DNA of 64,000 nucleotides from a virus. This document shows positions 56,887 through 63,847 of the stretch, piece by piece (the first letter of the stretch is position 1; every line of letters starts with the position of its first letter). Below the pieces are notes generated by a model. It was not told the origin of the DNA and did not search any database. It saw only the letters and a list, made by a program, of their open reading frames with translations. The position numbers and the translations under genes are program-made. The stretch spans positions 1 through 64,000 of the IMG/VR virus record IMGVR_UViG_3300032214_001346; one strand, given 5' to 3'.

Positions 56887-57218
56887 TTATCCACAATCAG
56901 GTTTTCCAGCTACGGAAAAACCACAAGCGGAAAAACCAGCTACGGAAAAACCACAAGCGGAAAATCCGGCTACGGAAAATCCGGCTACGGAAAATCTGCT
57001 ATATAATAAATATCTATTCCAATAAGTATTTAATTAAAGAATTATCTAAAGAGGAAGTATCTAAGCGGAATGCCCCTCATAAGAGGATTTAAGAAAAGAA
57101 CTAACACAACAGATATCTGTTATTCCTGGCTTAAAGACAAATATTTTTAGAGAACAGATAAATCACTCATTGGATCAGGTTATGCCCGCCCGCCGCGCTT
57201 AAAAATGACAAGAAGCTA
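56887..57218 (+). pseudogene. Non-coding inverted copy of the initiator's origin segment: DnaA box TTATCCACA (56887-56895), six 15-bp iterons (56906-56995), AT-rich tract
   Basis: Translates to SGFPATEKPQAEKPATEKPQAENPATENPATENLLYNKYLFQ*, then frameshifted homology to EEVS...QIS.IP.LK...QIN.SLD.V.PA. Confidence 0.85.
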
Positions 57219-57318: not shown

Positions 57319-57337
57319 CTTGCAATTAACCCAGTTC
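57319..57337 (-). CRISPR. Isolated 19-nt 3' half of the CRISPR repeat (GAACTGGGTTAATTGCAAG)
   Basis: Exact match to the array repeat. Confidence 0.75.
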
Positions 57338-57388
57338 AGGTGTCTTTATTTTAGTAAAGAAAGCCTTGAAAGCCTTATATTCTCGATC

Positions 57389-57476
57389 CGTTAAAAGTAA
57401 CGTTGGAGTCGTTAAAAGTAACGTTGGAGTCGTTAAAAGTAAGGTTGGAGTCGTTAAAAGTAACGTTGGAGTCGTT
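57389..57476. repeat. 4 x 21-bp tandem repeat CGTTAAAAGTAACGTTGGAGT (iteron-like)
   Basis: Four contiguous units with one substitution; followed by an AT-rich TTAATTAACA duplication. Confidence 0.9.
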
Positions 57477-57565
57477 GAATTTAAGGTTTCATCTATATTA
57501 TTAAACAATCTTAATTAACAGTCTTAATTAACAATCTTTAGCTTAAGCGTAAATAAAAAAGCTTC

Positions 57566-57695
57566 TTTAAGAAAAGAACTAATACAACAGATATCTGTTA
57601 TTCCTGGCTTAAAAGTAAATATTTTTAGAGAACAGATAAATCACTCATTGGATCAGGTTATGCCCGCCGCCGCGCTTAAAAATGACAAAAAGCTA
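57566..57695 (+). repeat. About 130-bp direct repeat of 57088-57218
   Basis: TTTAAGAAAAGAACTAA...CACTCATTGGATCAGGTTATGCCCG...AAAAATGACAA nearly identical. Confidence 0.9.
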
Positions 57696-57807
57696 ATAGA
57701 CTTTGGTTCAGAATTTATAAAGCAATTTTAAAGCGTACTTATTGAATAAATAAAAAAATACCCACTAAAGCGTGTTAGTGGGTATCAGGTTGAAACCTAC
57801 AATGCAA

Positions 57808-58011
57808 CTATAACACTGTTGAAACAGCCAAGACATCATTCATGTCTTGTCCATAATATTGAACTTCAGCGGTTCTCCGTCCAAAGCGAATATCCGCGTT
57901 TCCGCCGAAGGCTCTAATTTTCCCTGCGGACATCTTGACGTACACCTGGTTATCGTCCGTTAGGGAAAAATACCCGCAGACTGGTACATCTTTAAATTGT
58001 CTAAGCTTCAT
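57808..58011 (-). CDS. 67-aa hypothetical protein with its own consensus promoter (TTGACA-17-TAGACT, 58046-58074)
   Basis: AGGAG RBS, promoter and downstream hairpin terminator. Confidence 0.65.
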   Translation of the reverse strand: MKLRQFKDVPVCGYFSLTDDNQVYVKMSAGKIRAFGGNADIRFGRRTAEVQYYGQDMNDVLAVSTVL

Positions 58012-58115
58012 TGTTTTGTCTCCTTGTCTCCTGATTTATAAATATAGTCTATCTTATTTTTTGTTTACTGTCAAGTGGTTTTAGAAAATATTTGTTTCGC
58101 TTGCTTGCTTGAATT

Positions 58116-58223
58116 CTTGCAATTAACCCAGTCCCTCAAGTCCGGTTTCACCACGCTGAAACACAATTTAATACTTTAACTTACACCTTGCAATTAACTC
58201 AGTCCCTCAAGGTCGATTTCACC
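58116..58223 (-). CRISPR. Degenerate mini-array: two diverged 37-bp repeats (58116-58152, 58187-58223) and one 34-nt spacer
   Basis: CTTGCAATTAAC.CAGT and TTTCACC ends conserved; centre diverged. Confidence 0.85.
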
Positions 58224-58353
58224 TTTACCCCTATTATAGCATTATTTCTTATTAGGAAACAATTGCTCAAGTACCCGTCCTACAGTAGTTCCTAACCACT
58301 GACCACCGCGTTTTGAGGGTATGTTTTTATTGTTTAAATAATCTGCGATCTAG

Positions 58354-58593
58354 CTAAAAATCAACTCTACCATCACTGTTTAATTGGAATGTTTCGGCGT
58401 AGTCCTTGGCGATGAAACTGCTTATTAAGTCTACAGTGGTTACTTCGTTCATGGTTTTGTCGTAATACTGAGCATAATCTGATATGGTTTTATAGGCCAC
58501 TATTAGGTTTATGGCACTAGCTTTTAGTTCCGGGTTGTTCCAATCTGTCTTGTTGATGAACGCCAATTCTTTGCTGATATCCATTAATTCCAT
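58354..58593 (-). CDS. 79-aa hypothetical protein lying between the main array and the mini-array
   Basis: ORF behind a TGCTATAAT box; flanked by 36-bp direct repeats. Confidence 0.6.
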   Translation of the reverse strand: MELMDISKELAFINKTDWNNPELKASAINLIVAYKTISDYAQYYDKTMNEVTTVDLISSFIAKDYAETFQLNSDGRVDF

Positions 58594-58648
58594 AGCTTTT
58601 AAGGGGTAGGTTTTACCCCTATTATAGCATTATTTCTTATTAGGAAAT

Positions 58649-59049
58649 CTTGCAATTAACCCAGTTTCCCAAGGTCGGCTTCACCAATTAAATAGCACCG
58701 GCACTAATGATGAGATAAGAGTCTTGCAATTAACCCAGTTCCCTAAGGTCGGTTTCACCTTCTGAATATTGAATCTTTGATAGAAGCTAACTTGCAATTA
58801 ACCCAGTTCCCTAAGGTCGGTTTCACCAACTCGATGTTTTTTATTCCTGATTTTGAATCAAATCTTGCAATTAACCCAGTTCCCTAAGGTCGGTTTCACC
58901 CAAACCGGGAGGGTTGATGGAATTTAGGTCGACACTTGCAATTAACCCAGTTCCCTAAGGTCGGTTTCACCTTTGAAGCTCAAAAAAAGAGATTAGAGTT
59001 GAATTTTCTTGCCTTGCAATTAACCCAGTTCCCTAAGGTCGGTTTCACC
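58649..59049 (-). CRISPR. CRISPR array: six 37-bp repeats GGTGAAACCGACCTTAGGGAACTGGGTTAATTGCAAG with five spacers (41, 34, 36, 31, 37 nt in transcription order)
   Basis: Repeats at 59013-59049, 58935-58971, 58864-58900, 58791-58827, 58723-58759 (identical) and 58649-58685 (3 mismatches, trailer end); unique spacers. Confidence 0.97.
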
Positions 59050-60783
59050 TGCCGTATCCCAGATCGTAAGCTGTGTAAAGGTTTCATCCCCTGATTGCGC
59101 GGATCTCTTATTTTTCTTTGTTCCAGGTTTTTGAGTTTTCGCTGAATTAGCTGAAATGCTTATTGGGTAAGGTGCGCGGGTGCTTGGTAAATTGTCAAGG
59201 TTCGGATTGCTTACGGTGTCTACCTTTGAGGTTGTTTTCACGGCTTTAGAGGTTTTTACATCCCCCCTTCCGCGCTGAGTTCCCCTTTCGGGGTTTAATT
59301 GGGAGGAATATCCATCCTCCGGTGGTGCTTGCACACCTTCCTGGTGACATCCCGTATTGGAATCAGAGCCAGGCTTTCGGGTTTCCCCATGTTCCCACGC
59401 CCAAGCGCGGTACACTGCTGATAATTGTTTTTTGCCTTTGAGCAAGATGTTCTTAGCTGCATTAGAATCACGTCCTTCTGTGTGACCACATTCTGTACAG
59501 CGGTGAGTTCTTTGGCTCAATGCTTTCTTTATTTTAGCACCACATTTTGAACAGTCAACCGTAGTGAAATGAGCAGCAACTTTTACAAACTCTCTATCAG
59601 TATCTTTACACTTTGTTTCAATTTTACTGATTAAATCACCCAGTGCTGAATCAGCAAAACTTTTGTTTAACCCAGCTTTACGTTTTGCACCGTTTTGTTC
59701 ATAGCCATTGCCGTCCTCACGTTTCTTGGCTTTGGGCTTACGGTTCAGGTTTTGTATCTTTAAGTCTTCCATCACAATCCCAGAATACTCACGCACAACT
59801 TTAGTAGATAACTTATGGTTAAAAGCGTTACGGCTGCGGCGGATCTTTTCATGGTGTAAAGCTATTTTTTGATAGGTTTTCTTCTGATTACATCCTCCCT
59901 TTTGTTGCCTAGACGCTTTACGCTGTAACCGTCTTAGCTTTGCTTGTTGTTTCCTAAATAGCTTAGGCGGTTCTATTTCTCTCCCCTGATCTGTGGTGAT
60001 AATTGATAGTAAACCCGGATCAATTCCTACTGCTTTATCAGATTTTGGTAATGGGTCATTGGGGATATCAACGCATACATGAAGATAGTAACCTGATGGT
60101 TCTTTAACTATTCTGGCAGGACCCCATTCTTGCCAGTCATATCTATCAAATAATCCTTTAACTTTAATTTTACCAAGTTTAGGGAACTGGACATAGCCAT
60201 TATTTGAGCCGGGTATTTTTTCCGGTTTTAGTTCTTTGGATAAACCCCCAGCATTGAGATTAACAAGTGACTTGATTTTATCATTTCTCCCTTTGAATTT
60301 TGGCTTTCTACCGGGGTGTTTTGGGGTAACGTAAGCTTTCCATGATTTCTTTAAAGAATCAATTACCCCTGCCTTAAATTTAGTGGGAACATCTGCCATA
60401 AAGTCGGGAATATTGTCACTCCTATAAAATTCACATTGTCCATATTTATCAGGGTTTTCAATATTCAAATGTTGTCTAATTTCACAGTAAGGATGACCGC
60501 TTTTAGGTCTGATGACACCTGTACCGACTAAGCGGACTTTTTCCCACTTCTCAGTAGACTTACCTTTCTTGTCTTCAGTAACAACCTTTCGCCATTTCCA
60601 CTGCAAAACTACACCATCAGGAATAATGCGATCGCTTATTTCTTTCTCTCTATAATATTTCTGTCTTCCTGCTAGTTTGAGTGACAGCCCTGTATTCCAA
60701 ACCCACTTGAGTTTGTCTAGCCATTGATTAATCGTTTGTACCTGTGCAACCGTGGGGTCAAGTTTAAATTCAAAAGTTTTCAT
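59020..60783 (-). CDS. TnpB/Cas12f-like RNA-guided RuvC nuclease, CRISPR-associated (compact type V candidate)
   Basis: KTFEFKLDPT...WVWN N-terminus; RuvC-I GIDPG, RuvC-II VMEDL, Zn finger CSKC/CTEC, RuvC-III RDSNAAKNI; directly fused to the array. Confidence 0.9.
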   Translation of the reverse strand: MKTFEFKLDPTVAQVQTINQWLDKLKWVWNTGLSLKLAGRQKYYREKEISDRIIPDGVVLQWKWRKVVTEDKKGKSTEKWEKVRLVGTGVIRPKSGHPYCEIRQHLNIENPDKYGQCEFYRSDNIPDFMADVPTKFKAGVIDSLKKSWKAYVTPKHPGRKPKFKGRNDKIKSLVNLNAGGLSKELKPEKIPGSNNGYVQFPKLGKIKVKGLFDRYDWQEWGPARIVKEPSGYYLHVCVDIPNDPLPKSDKAVGIDPGLLSIITTDQGREIEPPKLFRKQQAKLRRLQRKASRQQKGGCNQKKTYQKIALHHEKIRRSRNAFNHKLSTKVVREYSGIVMEDLKIQNLNRKPKAKKREDGNGYEQNGAKRKAGLNKSFADSALGDLISKIETKCKDTDREFVKVAAHFTTVDCSKCGAKIKKALSQRTHRCTECGHTEGRDSNAAKNILLKGKKQLSAVYRAWAWEHGETRKPGSDSNTGCHQEGVQAPPEDGYSSQLNPERGTQRGRGDVKTSKAVKTTSKVDTVSNPNLDNLPSTRAPYPISISANSAKTQKPGTKKNKRSAQSGDETFTQLTIWDTAGETDLRELG

Positions 60784-60816
60784 GGTAAAATAGATGCGTG
60801 GGTATGTTGGACCTAC

Positions 60817-60878
60817 TCCTAGTGGTGGATTGATGCTGAGAACATCACCACGCGACTAGGTTTAAATATTATAGCATT
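60817..60878 (-). promoter_or_regulatory. Extended -10 (AATGCTATAATA) and 5'-UTR hairpin of the nuclease gene
   Basis: CCTAGT..GTGG.TGATG-loop-CATCA..CCAC.ACTAGG on the minus strand. Confidence 0.55.
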
Positions 60879-60991
60879 TAAACCAAATATATGACATTGA
60901 GGCAATTGAAACAGAAACTTTACGCTACAATAATAATGTCAAGCTCAGATATATTAAGGGTGCTGTCAGTAATGCTGACAGCTTTATCATT

Positions 60992-61321
60992 ATGTTCCCA
61001 AATGCGCCTAGTTCTCTTAAAATCAGTTGGGATAATGCCATAAGTTTTGAAGCAAGTTTCTTATCTCAAAACTACCAGGGTGGTGTGGATGAGAAAGGGA
61101 ATAGAAACCAGCTTAACCAGGTGGTCGGTACGCAGACTTTGACCTTGACCATTGATAGTTTATTTACTTATTCAGAGATTGATACTTTTTTAACTAATAA
61201 TTTAAGTAAGCCTTTCTACTTTAATTCCACTTTGTACCGTTGCGAGACGTTTAAGTGGACACCATCTAGCGATAAGGTGTTTAAGTTGGAACTGAGTTTA
61301 ATTCAAATATTTAGACCTTAA
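60992..61321 (+). CDS. Second minor tail protein M-like protein
   Basis: IDTFL......PFYF....YRC..F........LS..Q.F.P; 109 aa. Confidence 0.55.
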   Translation: MFPNAPSSLKISWDNAISFEASFLSQNYQGGVDEKGNRNQLNQVVGTQTLTLTIDSLFTYSEIDTFLTNNLSKPFYFNSTLYRCETFKWTPSSDKVFKLELSLIQIFRP

Positions 61322-61437
61322 TCAAGTCTAATCGGGCTATATATTCAATAAAAATTATAAGATATTTCTACTGATATTGTGCATAACAATTAATTATATG
61401 TAATTATTAAAAATAAAAATGTTGAGGTTTTAATACT

Positions 61438-61992
61438 ATGAAATGGGAAAAACTACCAAAACCTTGGACTAAAGAACAGTGTCGCCGTCGCTACGTTGAA
61501 AGTGAAGAGGATATAGGTATTAGAAAACTGGCTGTCGAGGCTGGCTTGGGTAAGGGAACTGTTGAGGTATGGGTAAGACGAGAATTATGGGTAGACCAAA
61601 GGCGACAGTACCAAGACACCCTAAAGACAACTATTCAAGTTAAAACTATACAGAAAGCATCTGAGAAAATATCAGATGAACTCTCTCAAATTGTCATTGA
61701 AAATTACAAAGTACACAAACTTGCTAGGGATTATGTGGCTAAAATAATTGAGGTTAAAGCTAGACAATTGGCAGAAGATTTAGAACTGACGGGAGAAGAA
61801 AGAAAGAAAGCAATTTCTCTACATAGCGCACCTGAAACAAATCAATGGTCACAGGCATTGCAGCGGTCAACAAGTGCCATTAATGAGACTAGAGGGATTA
61901 AATACTTTGTTGATGTCAACGCAGCTGCTGATAAGCTATCTAGGGAAGGCTACCAAATTATTGATCCAAGTGAAGATAATGAAGATATTTAA
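61438..61992 (+). CDS. Terminase small subunit-like HTH protein
   Basis: W......RYV......R.LA...G....TV..W...E.W..QR..Y; next to ParB-N and MTase genes. Confidence 0.55.
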   Translation: MKWEKLPKPWTKEQCRRRYVESEEDIGIRKLAVEAGLGKGTVEVWVRRELWVDQRRQYQDTLKTTIQVKTIQKASEKISDELSQIVIENYKVHKLARDYVAKIIEVKARQLAEDLELTGEERKKAISLHSAPETNQWSQALQRSTSAINETRGIKYFVDVNAAADKLSREGYQIIDPSEDNEDI

Positions 61993-62290
61993 GATTTTTG
62001 ATTTTACTGGACATGGTGCGATCGCTATTGAGCATGGAGAAACTGTATATAAGGCAATTCATTACCACTTACTACGTAATGAGTTGGTGCAATTGGATTT
62101 TACAGGAATTGAGATTTTAGGTACTGCATTTGTGGGAGTTGCCCTAAAGCAACTCCTGAGGGATATTTCCCAGGAAAAAGTGAATGGCTTAATTGAGTTT
62201 ACTGGACTCAGTGATGATAAACGTGATATGATACAGCGTGTAATGAAAAAAGCGTATAAGTGGTACTTTGATGAACAAAATCAAGCGTAG
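61979..62290 (+). CDS. STAS-like (DUF4325) protein; likely ATG 61979
   Basis: GE.VY..I......V.LDFTGI.....AFV..A...L. Confidence 0.75.
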   Translation: MKIFKIFDFTGHGAIAIEHGETVYKAIHYHLLRNELVQLDFTGIEILGTAFVGVALKQLLRDISQEKVNGLIEFTGLSDDKRDMIQRVMKKAYKWYFDEQNQA

Positions 62291-62807
62291 CCAGATAGAA
62301 GAATGGGATATTGATCGGCTGTCTCCTTATGAGAACAATGCTAAGTTGCACCCTGATTCTCACATTGAACAGATAGCTAACTCCATTGAGGAATTTACTT
62401 TTCTCGACCCGGTGGCAGTAGATGAGAATGGTGAAATACTAGAAGGTCACGGTCGGCTTTTAGCAGCCAAGAAACGGGGTGATAGTACAATTCCCGTAAT
62501 TCAAGTTACTGGGCTGTCAGATGCTCAAAAAGTGGCATATCGGTTAGCACATAACAAACTGACCATGAACACTGGATTTGATCCTGATATGTTGAAACTG
62601 GATTTTGAGTTTCTACAGGATAGTGAATTTGATCTGGGTTTAACGGGCTTTGGGGAATTGGAATTAAGTTTTCTGGATGATGAACAGGAAGAGGAAATTA
62701 ATGAACCTTACAGCCCAAAATCGTCAACCAAGGAAGTCAATGTAGATGAGTTTGAATTTGACCACAAGTGTCCTAAATGTGGTTTTCAGTACAATGATAA
62801 AAAATGA
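62268..62807 (+). CDS. ParB N-terminal (ParB/Srx) domain protein
   Basis: L.PY.NNAK.H....I.QIA.SI.EF.F..P..VDE.G.I..GHGRL.AA; C-terminal CPKCG. Confidence 0.9.
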   Translation: MMNKIKRSQIEEWDIDRLSPYENNAKLHPDSHIEQIANSIEEFTFLDPVAVDENGEILEGHGRLLAAKKRGDSTIPVIQVTGLSDAQKVAYRLAHNKLTMNTGFDPDMLKLDFEFLQDSEFDLGLTGFGELELSFLDDEQEEEINEPYSPKSSTKEVNVDEFEFDHKCPKCGFQYNDKK

Positions 62808-63847
62808 ATAATCCCCACGCCTGGTACTTAAAAGATTTGAAGCTTATACCCCAAAATGGACTAAAGGTAATGTCAACTTTTAGTTGCGGTGGTGGTAGTT
62901 CTTTAGGCTATAAACTAGCAGGCTGCAATGTCATTGCTGCTAATGATATTGATCCGGAAATGGCTTATCATTATCAGCTAAATCTTAATCCTCAACATTA
63001 TTTCTTGTGTCCAGTCAAAGACTTAATCAAGAAACAGTTGCCCAGTGAACTCTATCACTTAGATATATTAGATGGCAGCCCTCCTTGTTCTAATTTTTCA
63101 GTATCAGGGAACAGAGAAAAGGACTGGGGGAAGAAAAAACACTTTCGGGAAGGTCAAGCTGTACAGGTTCTTGATGACCTGTTCTTTGATTATTTAAACT
63201 TAGTTCAAAAGCTAAAACCCAAGGTGGCGATCGCTGAAAATGTCAAGGGGTTAATATTAGGTAATGCTAAAGGTTACTGCAAACTCATTATTGACAGATT
63301 CAAAGCTATTGGTTACAGCCCCCAACTATTCTTAGTTAATGCTGCGGACTGTGGTGTACCGCAGAGACGAGAACGGGTATTTTTTATTGCACTACGCAAC
63401 GATATTCATAAGCCTAAGCTGATATTAGCACCTAAGCACCGATGGGTTAGCACGGGAGAAGCCACTAGTGATTTGCAAGTGCTTACACAGGATGAAATTA
63501 AAGAAACCCGTCCTAGTCCCAACGATATTAAGTGTTGGGAGCATACACGCAAAGGTGATATGTACAAAACTTTTTTATTAAAGACAGAGAAACGTAATGC
63601 TTGCTTTAACAATATTAGGTTAGATGATAGTTGCCCTGCTAGTACGCTTAGTTCTACACCGGAACTATATACGCACTGGGATGTATGCAGAAAACTAACT
63701 TATAGAGAATATAAACGCTTAGGCTCATTTCCAGATGATTATAAAGCCAGAAGTACAAGGATAGGTAAATATATGATAGGTATGAGTGTACCACCGCGCA
63801 TGATGGAAAAGGTAGCACAAGCGGTAATTAGTCAGTGGTTATTGTGA
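62804..63847 (+). CDS. DNA cytosine-5 methyltransferase
   Basis: FSCGGG, DGSPPC, AENV, GVPQRRERVF, FPDDY, IGMSVPP. Confidence 0.95.
   Translation: MNNPHAWYLKDLKLIPQNGLKVMSTFSCGGGSSLGYKLAGCNVIAANDIDPEMAYHYQLNLNPQHYFLCPVKDLIKKQLPSELYHLDILDGSPPCSNFSVSGNREKDWGKKKHFREGQAVQVLDDLFFDYLNLVQKLKPKVAIAENVKGLILGNAKGYCKLIIDRFKAIGYSPQLFLVNAADCGVPQRRERVFFIALRNDIHKPKLILAPKHRWVSTGEATSDLQVLTQDEIKETRPSPNDIKCWEHTRKGDMYKTFLLKTEKRNACFNNIRLDDSCPASTLSSTPELYTHWDVCRKLTYREYKRLGSFPDDYKARSTRIGKYMIGMSVPPRMMEKVAQAVISQWLL

Follow-up and report, generated by a model that had tools for sequence, protein, structure and literature searches.

Why should the gene of a small nuclease run on until its stop codon lies inside a CRISPR array? 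This question is raised by a locus in a 64,000-nucleotide (nt) stretch of viral DNA, here called the window, that comprises positions 1-64,000 of IMG/VR virus record IMGVR_UViG_3300032214_001346 (93,412 bp, completeness estimate 94%). An open reading frame (ORF) call places a TnpB-like effector of 587 amino acids (aa) at 59020-60783, and a repeat search places an array of five identical repeats and one decayed distal repeat at 58649-59049; both, and all further elements of the locus given below, are on the minus strand. The final 27 coding nt of the ORF and its TAA stop are nt 1-30 of repeat 1. This overlap, and the repeats co-oriented with the gene, had been described in an earlier note made from the letters alone, and both descriptions hold at the sequence level.

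Taken as a whole, we think it probable that the locus is a working-looking type V-U2 (C2c8) CRISPR-Cas system of a CL131-like cyanophage of Dolichospermum/Aphanizomenon. A scaffold, corresponding to a tracrRNA (trans-activating CRISPR RNA), would be transcribed together with the array, either with the effector gene or from within it. The 3’ ~14 nt of each repeat would pair with this scaffold, ~10 nt with an anti-repeat and the final CAAG with a CUUG loop, in a pseudoknot as in Cas12p and TnpB. The resulting complex would cut DNA next to a 5’ GTN-like protospacer adjacent motif (PAM), mostly in competing phages. The codons of the effector’s tail would double as scaffold and as the array’s upstream region, and a QLxLW sequence near the C-terminus would be a beta-sliding-clamp-binding motif, tethering the nuclease to host DnaN on replicating DNA. 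On this proposal, a disordered effector tail of ~130 aa is what takes the ORF as far as the first repeat, and the tail must stay in frame, its sequence otherwise drifting, because it ends in the conserved QLxLW.

A C2c8 effector with an intact nuclease core

Searches with family models (hidden Markov models) assign the effector to C2c8. It scored 484.2 bits against NCBIfam NF038192 (cut-off 350, E 4.8e-145) and 173 bits against the NCBIfam IS200 TnpB model, under that model’s own cut-off of 425, so that the guess ‘V-U, e.g. C2c8’ made in the earlier note was correct. Pfam matches to OrfB_IS605 (PF01385) and Cas12f1-like TNB (PF07282) are to TnpB-type domains. Alignments place the RuvC/zinc-finger span at 59467-60021, from the codon of D255 (60019-60021) through that of E339 (59767-59769) to that of D439 (59467-59469), with the zinc-finger cysteines C411-C432 at 59488-59553. 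The RuvC triad and zinc finger that had been read from the 587-aa ORF are intact: D255, E339 and D439, as well as C411, C414 and C429, are invariant in an alignment of 52 homologs, and the catalytic and zinc-finger positions align with those of ISDra2 TnpB and Cas12p. The ratio of nonsynonymous to synonymous polymorphism (pN/pS) is 0.08-0.09 in the core, indicating strong purifying selection. An AlphaFold2 (AF2) model has a high predicted local distance difference test score (pLDDT) over aa 1-457 (59413-60783) and a score below 50 over aa 458-587.

The top match in the PDB, by sequence (HMMER, E 2e-29) and by fold of the AlphaFold model (E 6.5e-22), was Cas12p (9jfs), which is likewise phage-borne, miniature and TnpB-like. 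Cas12p (‘Cas12 hacker’, type V-P) is a phage-associated miniature nuclease that cleaves DNA (bioRxiv 10.1101/2025.01.20.633832; Nat Microbiol 2026). It has a GTN PAM and a 118-nt tracrRNA and uses only the last 10 nt of the repeat (10.1101/2025.01.20.633832); the last four repeat nucleotides form a pseudoknot, and host thioredoxin activates the enzyme (10.1101/2025.01.20.633832; Nat Microbiol 2026). Identity to our effector is only ~21-22%, and ~100 Cas12p residues that lie between the N-terminal helix and WED/REC, and include the thioredoxin-binding part, have no counterpart: in the HMMER alignment, residues 166-269 of the 9jfs chain face only effector residues 38-48, so that the thioredoxin-binding domain is missing. 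Cas12p also has no long C-terminal tail, and its host partner is TrxA, whereas the candidate here is DnaN. On account of the low identity and the missing thioredoxin-binding part, we file the protein under C2c8 and regard Cas12p as a probable sister family.

A locus of this kind has been described before. The effector gene is 77.5% identical in DNA sequence to gp061, annotated ‘transposase’, of the Aphanizomenon phage vB_AphaS-CL131, the V-U2 locus of which was published in 2018 (PMC6293099). For comparison with the window, the collections supplied 11 viral loci, full or nearly so, and a scaffold from an assembly of Dolichospermum circinale. CL131 is of the same phage lineage and has the same gene-array arrangement and orientation, a protein core ~75-80% identical, and no other cas genes; it differs in its repeat sequence, in a long (~17-30 bp) repeat/anti-repeat duplex, and in an ORF annotated as 466 aa, the result of a CGA-to-TGA change. 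The architecture is therefore not the novelty that the earlier note had taken it for. Neither is the overlap of ORF and repeat, which recurs family-wide, including in chromosomal members; an ORF ending at or within ~30 nt of the first repeat appears to be a family trait. The CL131 paper reported no tracrRNA, left the direction of the array open, and suggested a regulatory or non-defensive role for small V-U effectors (PMC6293099). Comparison of the relatives appears to resolve the first two points, as described below. New here are the embedded scaffold, the evidence for polarised spacer turnover, and a candidate clamp-binding tail, the last so far only computational.

No Cas1, Cas2 or Y1 TnpA is encoded anywhere in the 93-kb virus record, which extends to the whole record what the earlier note had reported for the window; tail-fibre, virion and DnaB-helicase genes are in the same record. 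The broader description, a type V effector that is borne by a phage, derives from TnpB, has a co-oriented array and lacks adaptation genes, is thus supported. In the literature that we searched, no mechanism is described for type V-U2, which in this respect is among the last of the early-defined type V variants.

A covarying scaffold with an anti-repeat inside the coding sequence

The earlier note had described a minimal system in which only a leader was embedded in the gene. That the effector comes without adaptation genes stands, but a structured scaffold and an anti-repeat beneath the ORF tail had been missed. In an alignment running from the RuvC-III codon to the first repeat, a block of ~85 nt is invariant across all phages, synonymous sites included, with one base in CL131 as the sole exception, whereas the flanking codons vary at third positions. 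RNAalifold and covariation define a tracrRNA-like scaffold at 59288-59420. It comprises an invariant hairpin (59389-59415) with a CUUG loop (59402-59405), covarying helices at 59340-59373, 59324-59337 and 59302-59320, and, directly after the last helix, an anti-repeat at 59291-59301.

The RNAalifold structure has 34 pairs, in five local helices and one long-range helix that lacks compensatory support; compensatory changes occur in 12 of the 34. When the named scaffold structure was scored across the alignment, 99.3% of cells were paired, compared with 38-53% in controls slid along the sequence, and none of 500 shuffles reached the observed covariation. The anti-repeat changes together with the repeat between phage groups. 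In CL131-type phages it pairs with nearly the whole repeat, at -28 to -33 kcal/mol, and the cognate duplexes of that group (-26 to -33 kcal/mol) are more stable than cross-group ones (-7 to -20 kcal/mol). A covariance model of the scaffold matched chromosomal C2c8 loci (E ~3e-7) and found no match in nearby TnpB-like loci. An Rfam scan of 57500-61500 returned nothing real.

The CUUG loop of the first hairpin can also pair with the CAAG that ends the repeat (UAAG, a wobble, in relative L017), in a putative pseudoknot that resembles that of Cas12p. Loop and repeat-like unit end appear to have changed together in two chromosomal homologs (CUUU with AAAG, and CUUC with GAAG), a tentative reading because the unit boundaries are uncertain there.

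Several observations weigh against this guide architecture in the window itself. The duplex of the window’s phage group is short, ~10 bp near the repeat 3’ end at -17 kcal/mol, and RNAduplex over the whole upstream region placed the anti-repeat of this group inconsistently; we replaced that search by an analysis of homologous positions. The CAAG:CUUG pair is invariant among phages, and its backing consists of the one wobble variant and the two tentative chromosomal readings.

A promoter-like site within the ORF (59531-59558; TTGACT, 16 nt, TG-n-TAAAAT; 10 of 12 consensus matches) is a candidate start for a transcript of scaffold and array. It is retained in all phage homologs, a conservation that is ambiguous because the site overlaps the zinc-finger codons. 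In four lake metatranscriptomes there are contigs in which the scaffold region (59217 and upward) is joined to a repeat (58827); they come from a relative of the L012 type, which carries a deletion described below, and their ends differ (59513, 59310, 59314 and 59606). Mean depth was 151-591 on these contigs and 2-13 on contigs of the ORF body, but contig depth cannot rank the parts of a gene, and the conserved block may sum several strains. The depths give no more than a weak hint that scaffold and array make up the abundant RNA.

This layout has parallels. In TnpB/omegaRNA systems (ISDra2, ISFba1) the protein has the same fold, the scaffold likewise extends over the gene’s 3’ end, and directly downstream lies the guide; the present locus differs in having no TnpA or transposon ends, a many-guide array, and a scaffold split from the repeat. 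Cas12n (V-U4) and the TranC intermediates are also miniature effectors near the TnpB-to-Cas12 transition, Cas12n in another clade than C2c8 and TranC probably so, and a preprint places the Cas12n tracrRNA under an unstructured C-terminal domain (10.64898/2026.03.27.714800). The locus and its relatives provide a predicted guide architecture for V-U2, with scaffold coordinates, an anti-repeat and a minimal repeat part, in addition to a PAM guess.

Some chromosomal homologs are organised differently. L053 and L054 (both of genome G525) and L052 (G566) score above the family cut-off and have no array; after the ORF comes a single repeat-like unit, matched by an anti-repeat in the region of the tail, and between the two G525 copies anti-repeat and unit differ in a compensatory way. 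Judged by these features, they look like an omegaRNA-like single-guide state of the C2c8 family. L056 (genome G429), a more distant homolog in which the zinc finger and RuvC-III are apparently absent, has a five-repeat array that begins right at the stop codon and in which two neighbouring spacers are identical; this homolog may be a relative with a dead nuclease.

The C-terminal tail and a candidate clamp-binding motif

The 130-aa tail of the effector (aa 458-587) is disordered in the AF2 model. Its pN/pS is 0.8-1.0, substitutions are spread evenly over codon positions, and synonymous-site divergence is lower than in the core. These three properties indicate that the constraint on the tail acts on nucleotides and not on amino acids. 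Even so, 12 of 14 phage loci, including two mutually unalignable tail versions, keep an open frame as far as the first repeat, and so do five chromosomal homologs of 45-50% identity; CL131 and L012 are exceptions.

The very end of the tail is conserved as protein: a basic stretch is followed by Q-L-x-[LIF]-[WF]. Conservation and docking single out Q571-L-T-I-W575 in the window, 12 aa before the stop (codons at 59059-59073). A motif of this QLxLW type occurs in ~70 of 120 homologs, 0-12 residues from the C-terminus and down to 32% identity, in forms such as QLGLW, QLNLW, QLSLF, QLTLF and QLELDLW. Q571, L572 and W575 are invariant in an alignment that was chosen for tail-bearing homologs, a choice that inflates the figure. 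Among chromosomal homologs with readable DNA, the motif codons vary synonymously (CAG/CAA; CTT/CTA/TTA).

Polymerase clamp motifs such as QLGLF and QLNLF look the same. The bacterial consensus for beta-clamp binding is QL(S/D)LF (PMC9690074), and the effector carries a sequence of the clamp-motif form (QL[SD]LF / QLxLxL) in a flexible C-terminal region, namely QLTIW at 571-575. We predicted the complex of residues 530-587 with DnaN of a Dolichospermum assembly, both given as alignments. The prediction scored 0.65 (runs 0.61, 0.66 and 0.65), and the best of three controls scored 0.00; the docking mark is reached by 58 of 80 solved complexes and by 2 of 110 mismatched pairs. Agreement between runs extends to at least 56% of contacts, with a partner pLDDT of at least 41. 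Tail residues 568-577 are predicted to lie in the canonical DnaN cleft formed by 179-184, 257-260, 359-361 and the C-terminal 375-383. The docking supports a likeness to known clamp-peptide complexes and falls short of showing binding.

We propose, tentatively and at somewhat less than even odds, that long-tailed C2c8 effectors are tethered to the host beta sliding clamp by a C-terminal QLxLW/F motif, with the tail codons doubling as tracrRNA and as the upstream region of the array. The clamp would be that of the host, and the phage record has no DnaN gene of its own. IS608 TnpA is reported to interact with DnaN (PMC5027513). In the literature that we searched, no paper linked TnpB or Cas12 to the clamp, and no clamp-type motif was reported for Cas12n or TranC.

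Against a clamp tether stand the following points. The docking may pass only by mirroring solved clamp-peptide complexes, and the fold confidence of the partner is low. The motif ends in W where the textbook form has F, and in the window phage it lies 12 aa from the C-terminus. Before the motif, CL131 carries a nonsense codon (CGA to TGA) as well as a frame change, and that phage is still viable; relatives of the L012 type have this part of the tail deleted.

These same variants favour a different account, in which the tail is an accidental open frame over a non-coding scaffold and leader, with QLxLW kept for an RNA or DNA reason such as a signal at the leader-repeat junction. A pN/pS near 1 with evenly affected codon positions, the disorder of the tail, the CL131 stop and frame change, the L012 deletion, and a nucleotide-level conservation in the tail that exceeds that of core synonymous sites would all be expected of such a frame. 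We nevertheless judge this account unlikely. Approximately 95-150 codons remain open in two unalignable tail versions and in chromosomal homologs at 45-50% identity, the motif residues are kept while their codons vary synonymously, and the motif is predicted to dock into the canonical DnaN pocket with controls at 0.

Two details of the variants can be added. The CGA-to-TGA stop of CL131 (L001, 2900-3100) sits inside the invariant scaffold block. Phages of the L012 type have lost ~170 nt between scaffold and first repeat (L012:4560-4660) and have kept two repeats. Together with the two repeat/anti-repeat versions, the nonsense and deletion variants form a natural series that makes the system directly testable. 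If the clamp motif is real, it would explain why the ORF needs to reach the first repeat, and it would represent a new kind of host-protein help for small RNA-guided nucleases, of interest for compact genome editors. A clamp tether would make this a second and different case of a phage-borne miniature Cas12 relying on a host factor, beside Cas12p with thioredoxin, and would connect nucleases derived from TnpB with the replication fork, a connection known for IS608 TnpA and DnaN.

Gene-proximal spacer turnover and spacer targets

Repeats 1-5 of the window array are 37 nt long and identical (59013-59049, 58935-58971, 58864-58900, 58791-58827 and 58723-58759), and repeat 6 (58649-58685) has 3 mismatches. 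The five spacers measure 41 nt (58972-59012), 34 nt (58901-58934), 36 nt (58828-58863), 31 nt (58760-58790) and 37 nt (58686-58722). Beyond them, behind an inserted cassette, are two diverged repeats with 5 mismatches each (58187-58223 and 58116-58152) around a single 34-nt spacer (58153-58186), forming a distal mini-array at 58116-58223; the earlier note had missed these repeats, as well as an orphan 19-nt 3’ half repeat at 57319-57337.

An array follows the ORF directly in every full-length homolog locus except one truncated contig, with 2 to >28 repeats. The homologs were to be checked for an ORF/repeat overlap with different spacers, and this is what they have: the overlap is common, and nearly all spacers differ. 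Phages with 94-99% identical effectors have almost no spacers in common. L013 and L014 have only three distal spacers in common and differ at their gene-proximal ends, and L035 has the distal half of the array of L018. Such distal-only sharing would be expected of arrays that gain their new spacers beside the gene, and the decayed distal repeat is in keeping with it. Within an array the repeats are uniform, and between close relatives they differ by several bases, which also fits turnover from the first repeat.

The source of the new spacers is a weak point of our explanation, as none was found. On the model of the earlier note, this would be a minimal system at the TnpB-to-Cas12 transition, in effect without a tracrRNA, its leader embedded in coding sequence, that would borrow the host’s class 1 Cas1-Cas2 through likeness of the repeats. 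The phage has no cas1 or cas2, repeat and spacer lengths are class-1-like, and dynamic arrays with leader-proximal turnover mean that some adaptation machinery must act. We nonetheless find this version improbable. A covarying scaffold with an anti-repeat is present, none of the arrays of 20 Dolichospermum genomes contains the repeat 3’ end, 389 Nostocaceae genomes lack a second repeat type carried by L018, and in the CL131 paper, too, host repeats were found to be little similar to the phage repeat (PMC6293099). Borrowing by way of repeat likeness thus has no support.

One spacer, an old one, has a clear match. The mini-array spacer (58153-58186) matches relatives L011 (7268-7301, 32 of 34 nt) and L010 (6134-6163, 29 of 30 nt); in both, the protospacer is on the other strand, outside their arrays, and preceded by GTT. 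This flank fits the GTN PAM of Cas12p. It weighs on the other side that the GTT PAM comes from one protospacer, found in two relatives. The window phage genome has no copy of the target and no match to any spacer of the relatives. Other spacers of the window phage and of L018, L011, L009 and L021 gave nothing convincing in phage and plasmid collections and 200 Nostocaceae genomes. The use against competing phages suggested in the earlier note has the support of one spacer, which matches two sister phages; the other spacers searched yielded no convincing target. Together with the fast spacer turnover, this spacer points to CRISPR competition between cyanophages in lake blooms.

A small effector and a near-complete lack of targets would also suit a regulatory or non-defensive locus, with RNA-guided DNA binding without cutting or with action on genes of the phage or host, and the orphan half repeat and mini-array recall delocalised guides. 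We give this reading little credence: under strong purifying selection, the catalytic triad and the zinc finger do not vary, DNA cleavage is known for the related Cas12p, fast turnover of spacers suits immunity, and the window’s spacers match nothing in their own phage genome and nothing convincingly in those genomes of the host family that were searched. The idea of an ordinary TnpB element of the IS200/IS605 type beside an unrelated array can practically be dismissed, for although Pfam and NCBIfam TnpB domains match, the record has no TnpA, the gene-array arrangement is the same in every array-bearing phage relative, in chromosomal L055 and L056, too, the array begins at the stop codon, anti-repeat and repeat change together, and the effector is above the C2c8 cut-off and below that for IS200 TnpB (173 vs 425).

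Two further candidate targets were rejected. For a shared 17-nt spacer core, IMG/VR gave only matches of 17-20 nt, which are too short; they lie in a virion-type gene of other viral contigs and in the array of another relative. A 20-nt seed of spacer 3 gave one 21-nt partial match with the flank TAC, taken as chance.

Spacers of different phages overlap in places. L018 spacers 6, 9 and 16 share one overlapping sequence, on both strands, of which window spacer 5 shares ~12 nt. Spacers 25 and 26 of L018 have the same sequence, with which L009 spacer 17 overlaps around a GCGATCGC (HIP1) site. L018 also has a second array directly after its first (L018:6740-7404), with a different 37-nt repeat that likewise has GTTGCAAG at its end; a spacer of this second array overlaps what window spacer 2 targets. 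A shared enemy would be expected to leave such overlaps among the independent spacers of different phages. In L011 spacer 18, part of a repeat is present as its reverse complement.

The cassette (58224-58648) is an insert of 425 nt. It holds an ORF of 79 aa (58354-58593) for which Pfam and PHROG gave no match. On either side of the ORF lies a copy of a 36-nt unit (58224-58259 and 58612-58647) that holds TATAAT, and the cassette occupies a spacer’s place between repeats 6 and 7. Relative L010 has small ORFs between its distal repeats, each beginning directly after a repeat (L010:4940-5740). Distal repeats thus seem to serve as swap-in sites for small genes.

The orphan half repeat lies ~780 nt beyond the array, in array orientation, and includes exactly the part predicted to pair with the scaffold. 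It could act as a stand-alone guide; the sequence after it had no convincing match in the 20 Dolichospermum genomes. Also beyond the array region, 21-nt tandem repeats (TPTLLLT in one frame) occupy 57326-57520 and are flanked by near-identical copies of ~110 nt (57600-57700 and 57100-57210). Elsewhere in the window, at 62268-63847, a gene for a ParB-N-like protein is followed by one for a C-5 cytosine DNA methyltransferase (Pfam E 5e-50), which may function in phage self-protection or anti-restriction.

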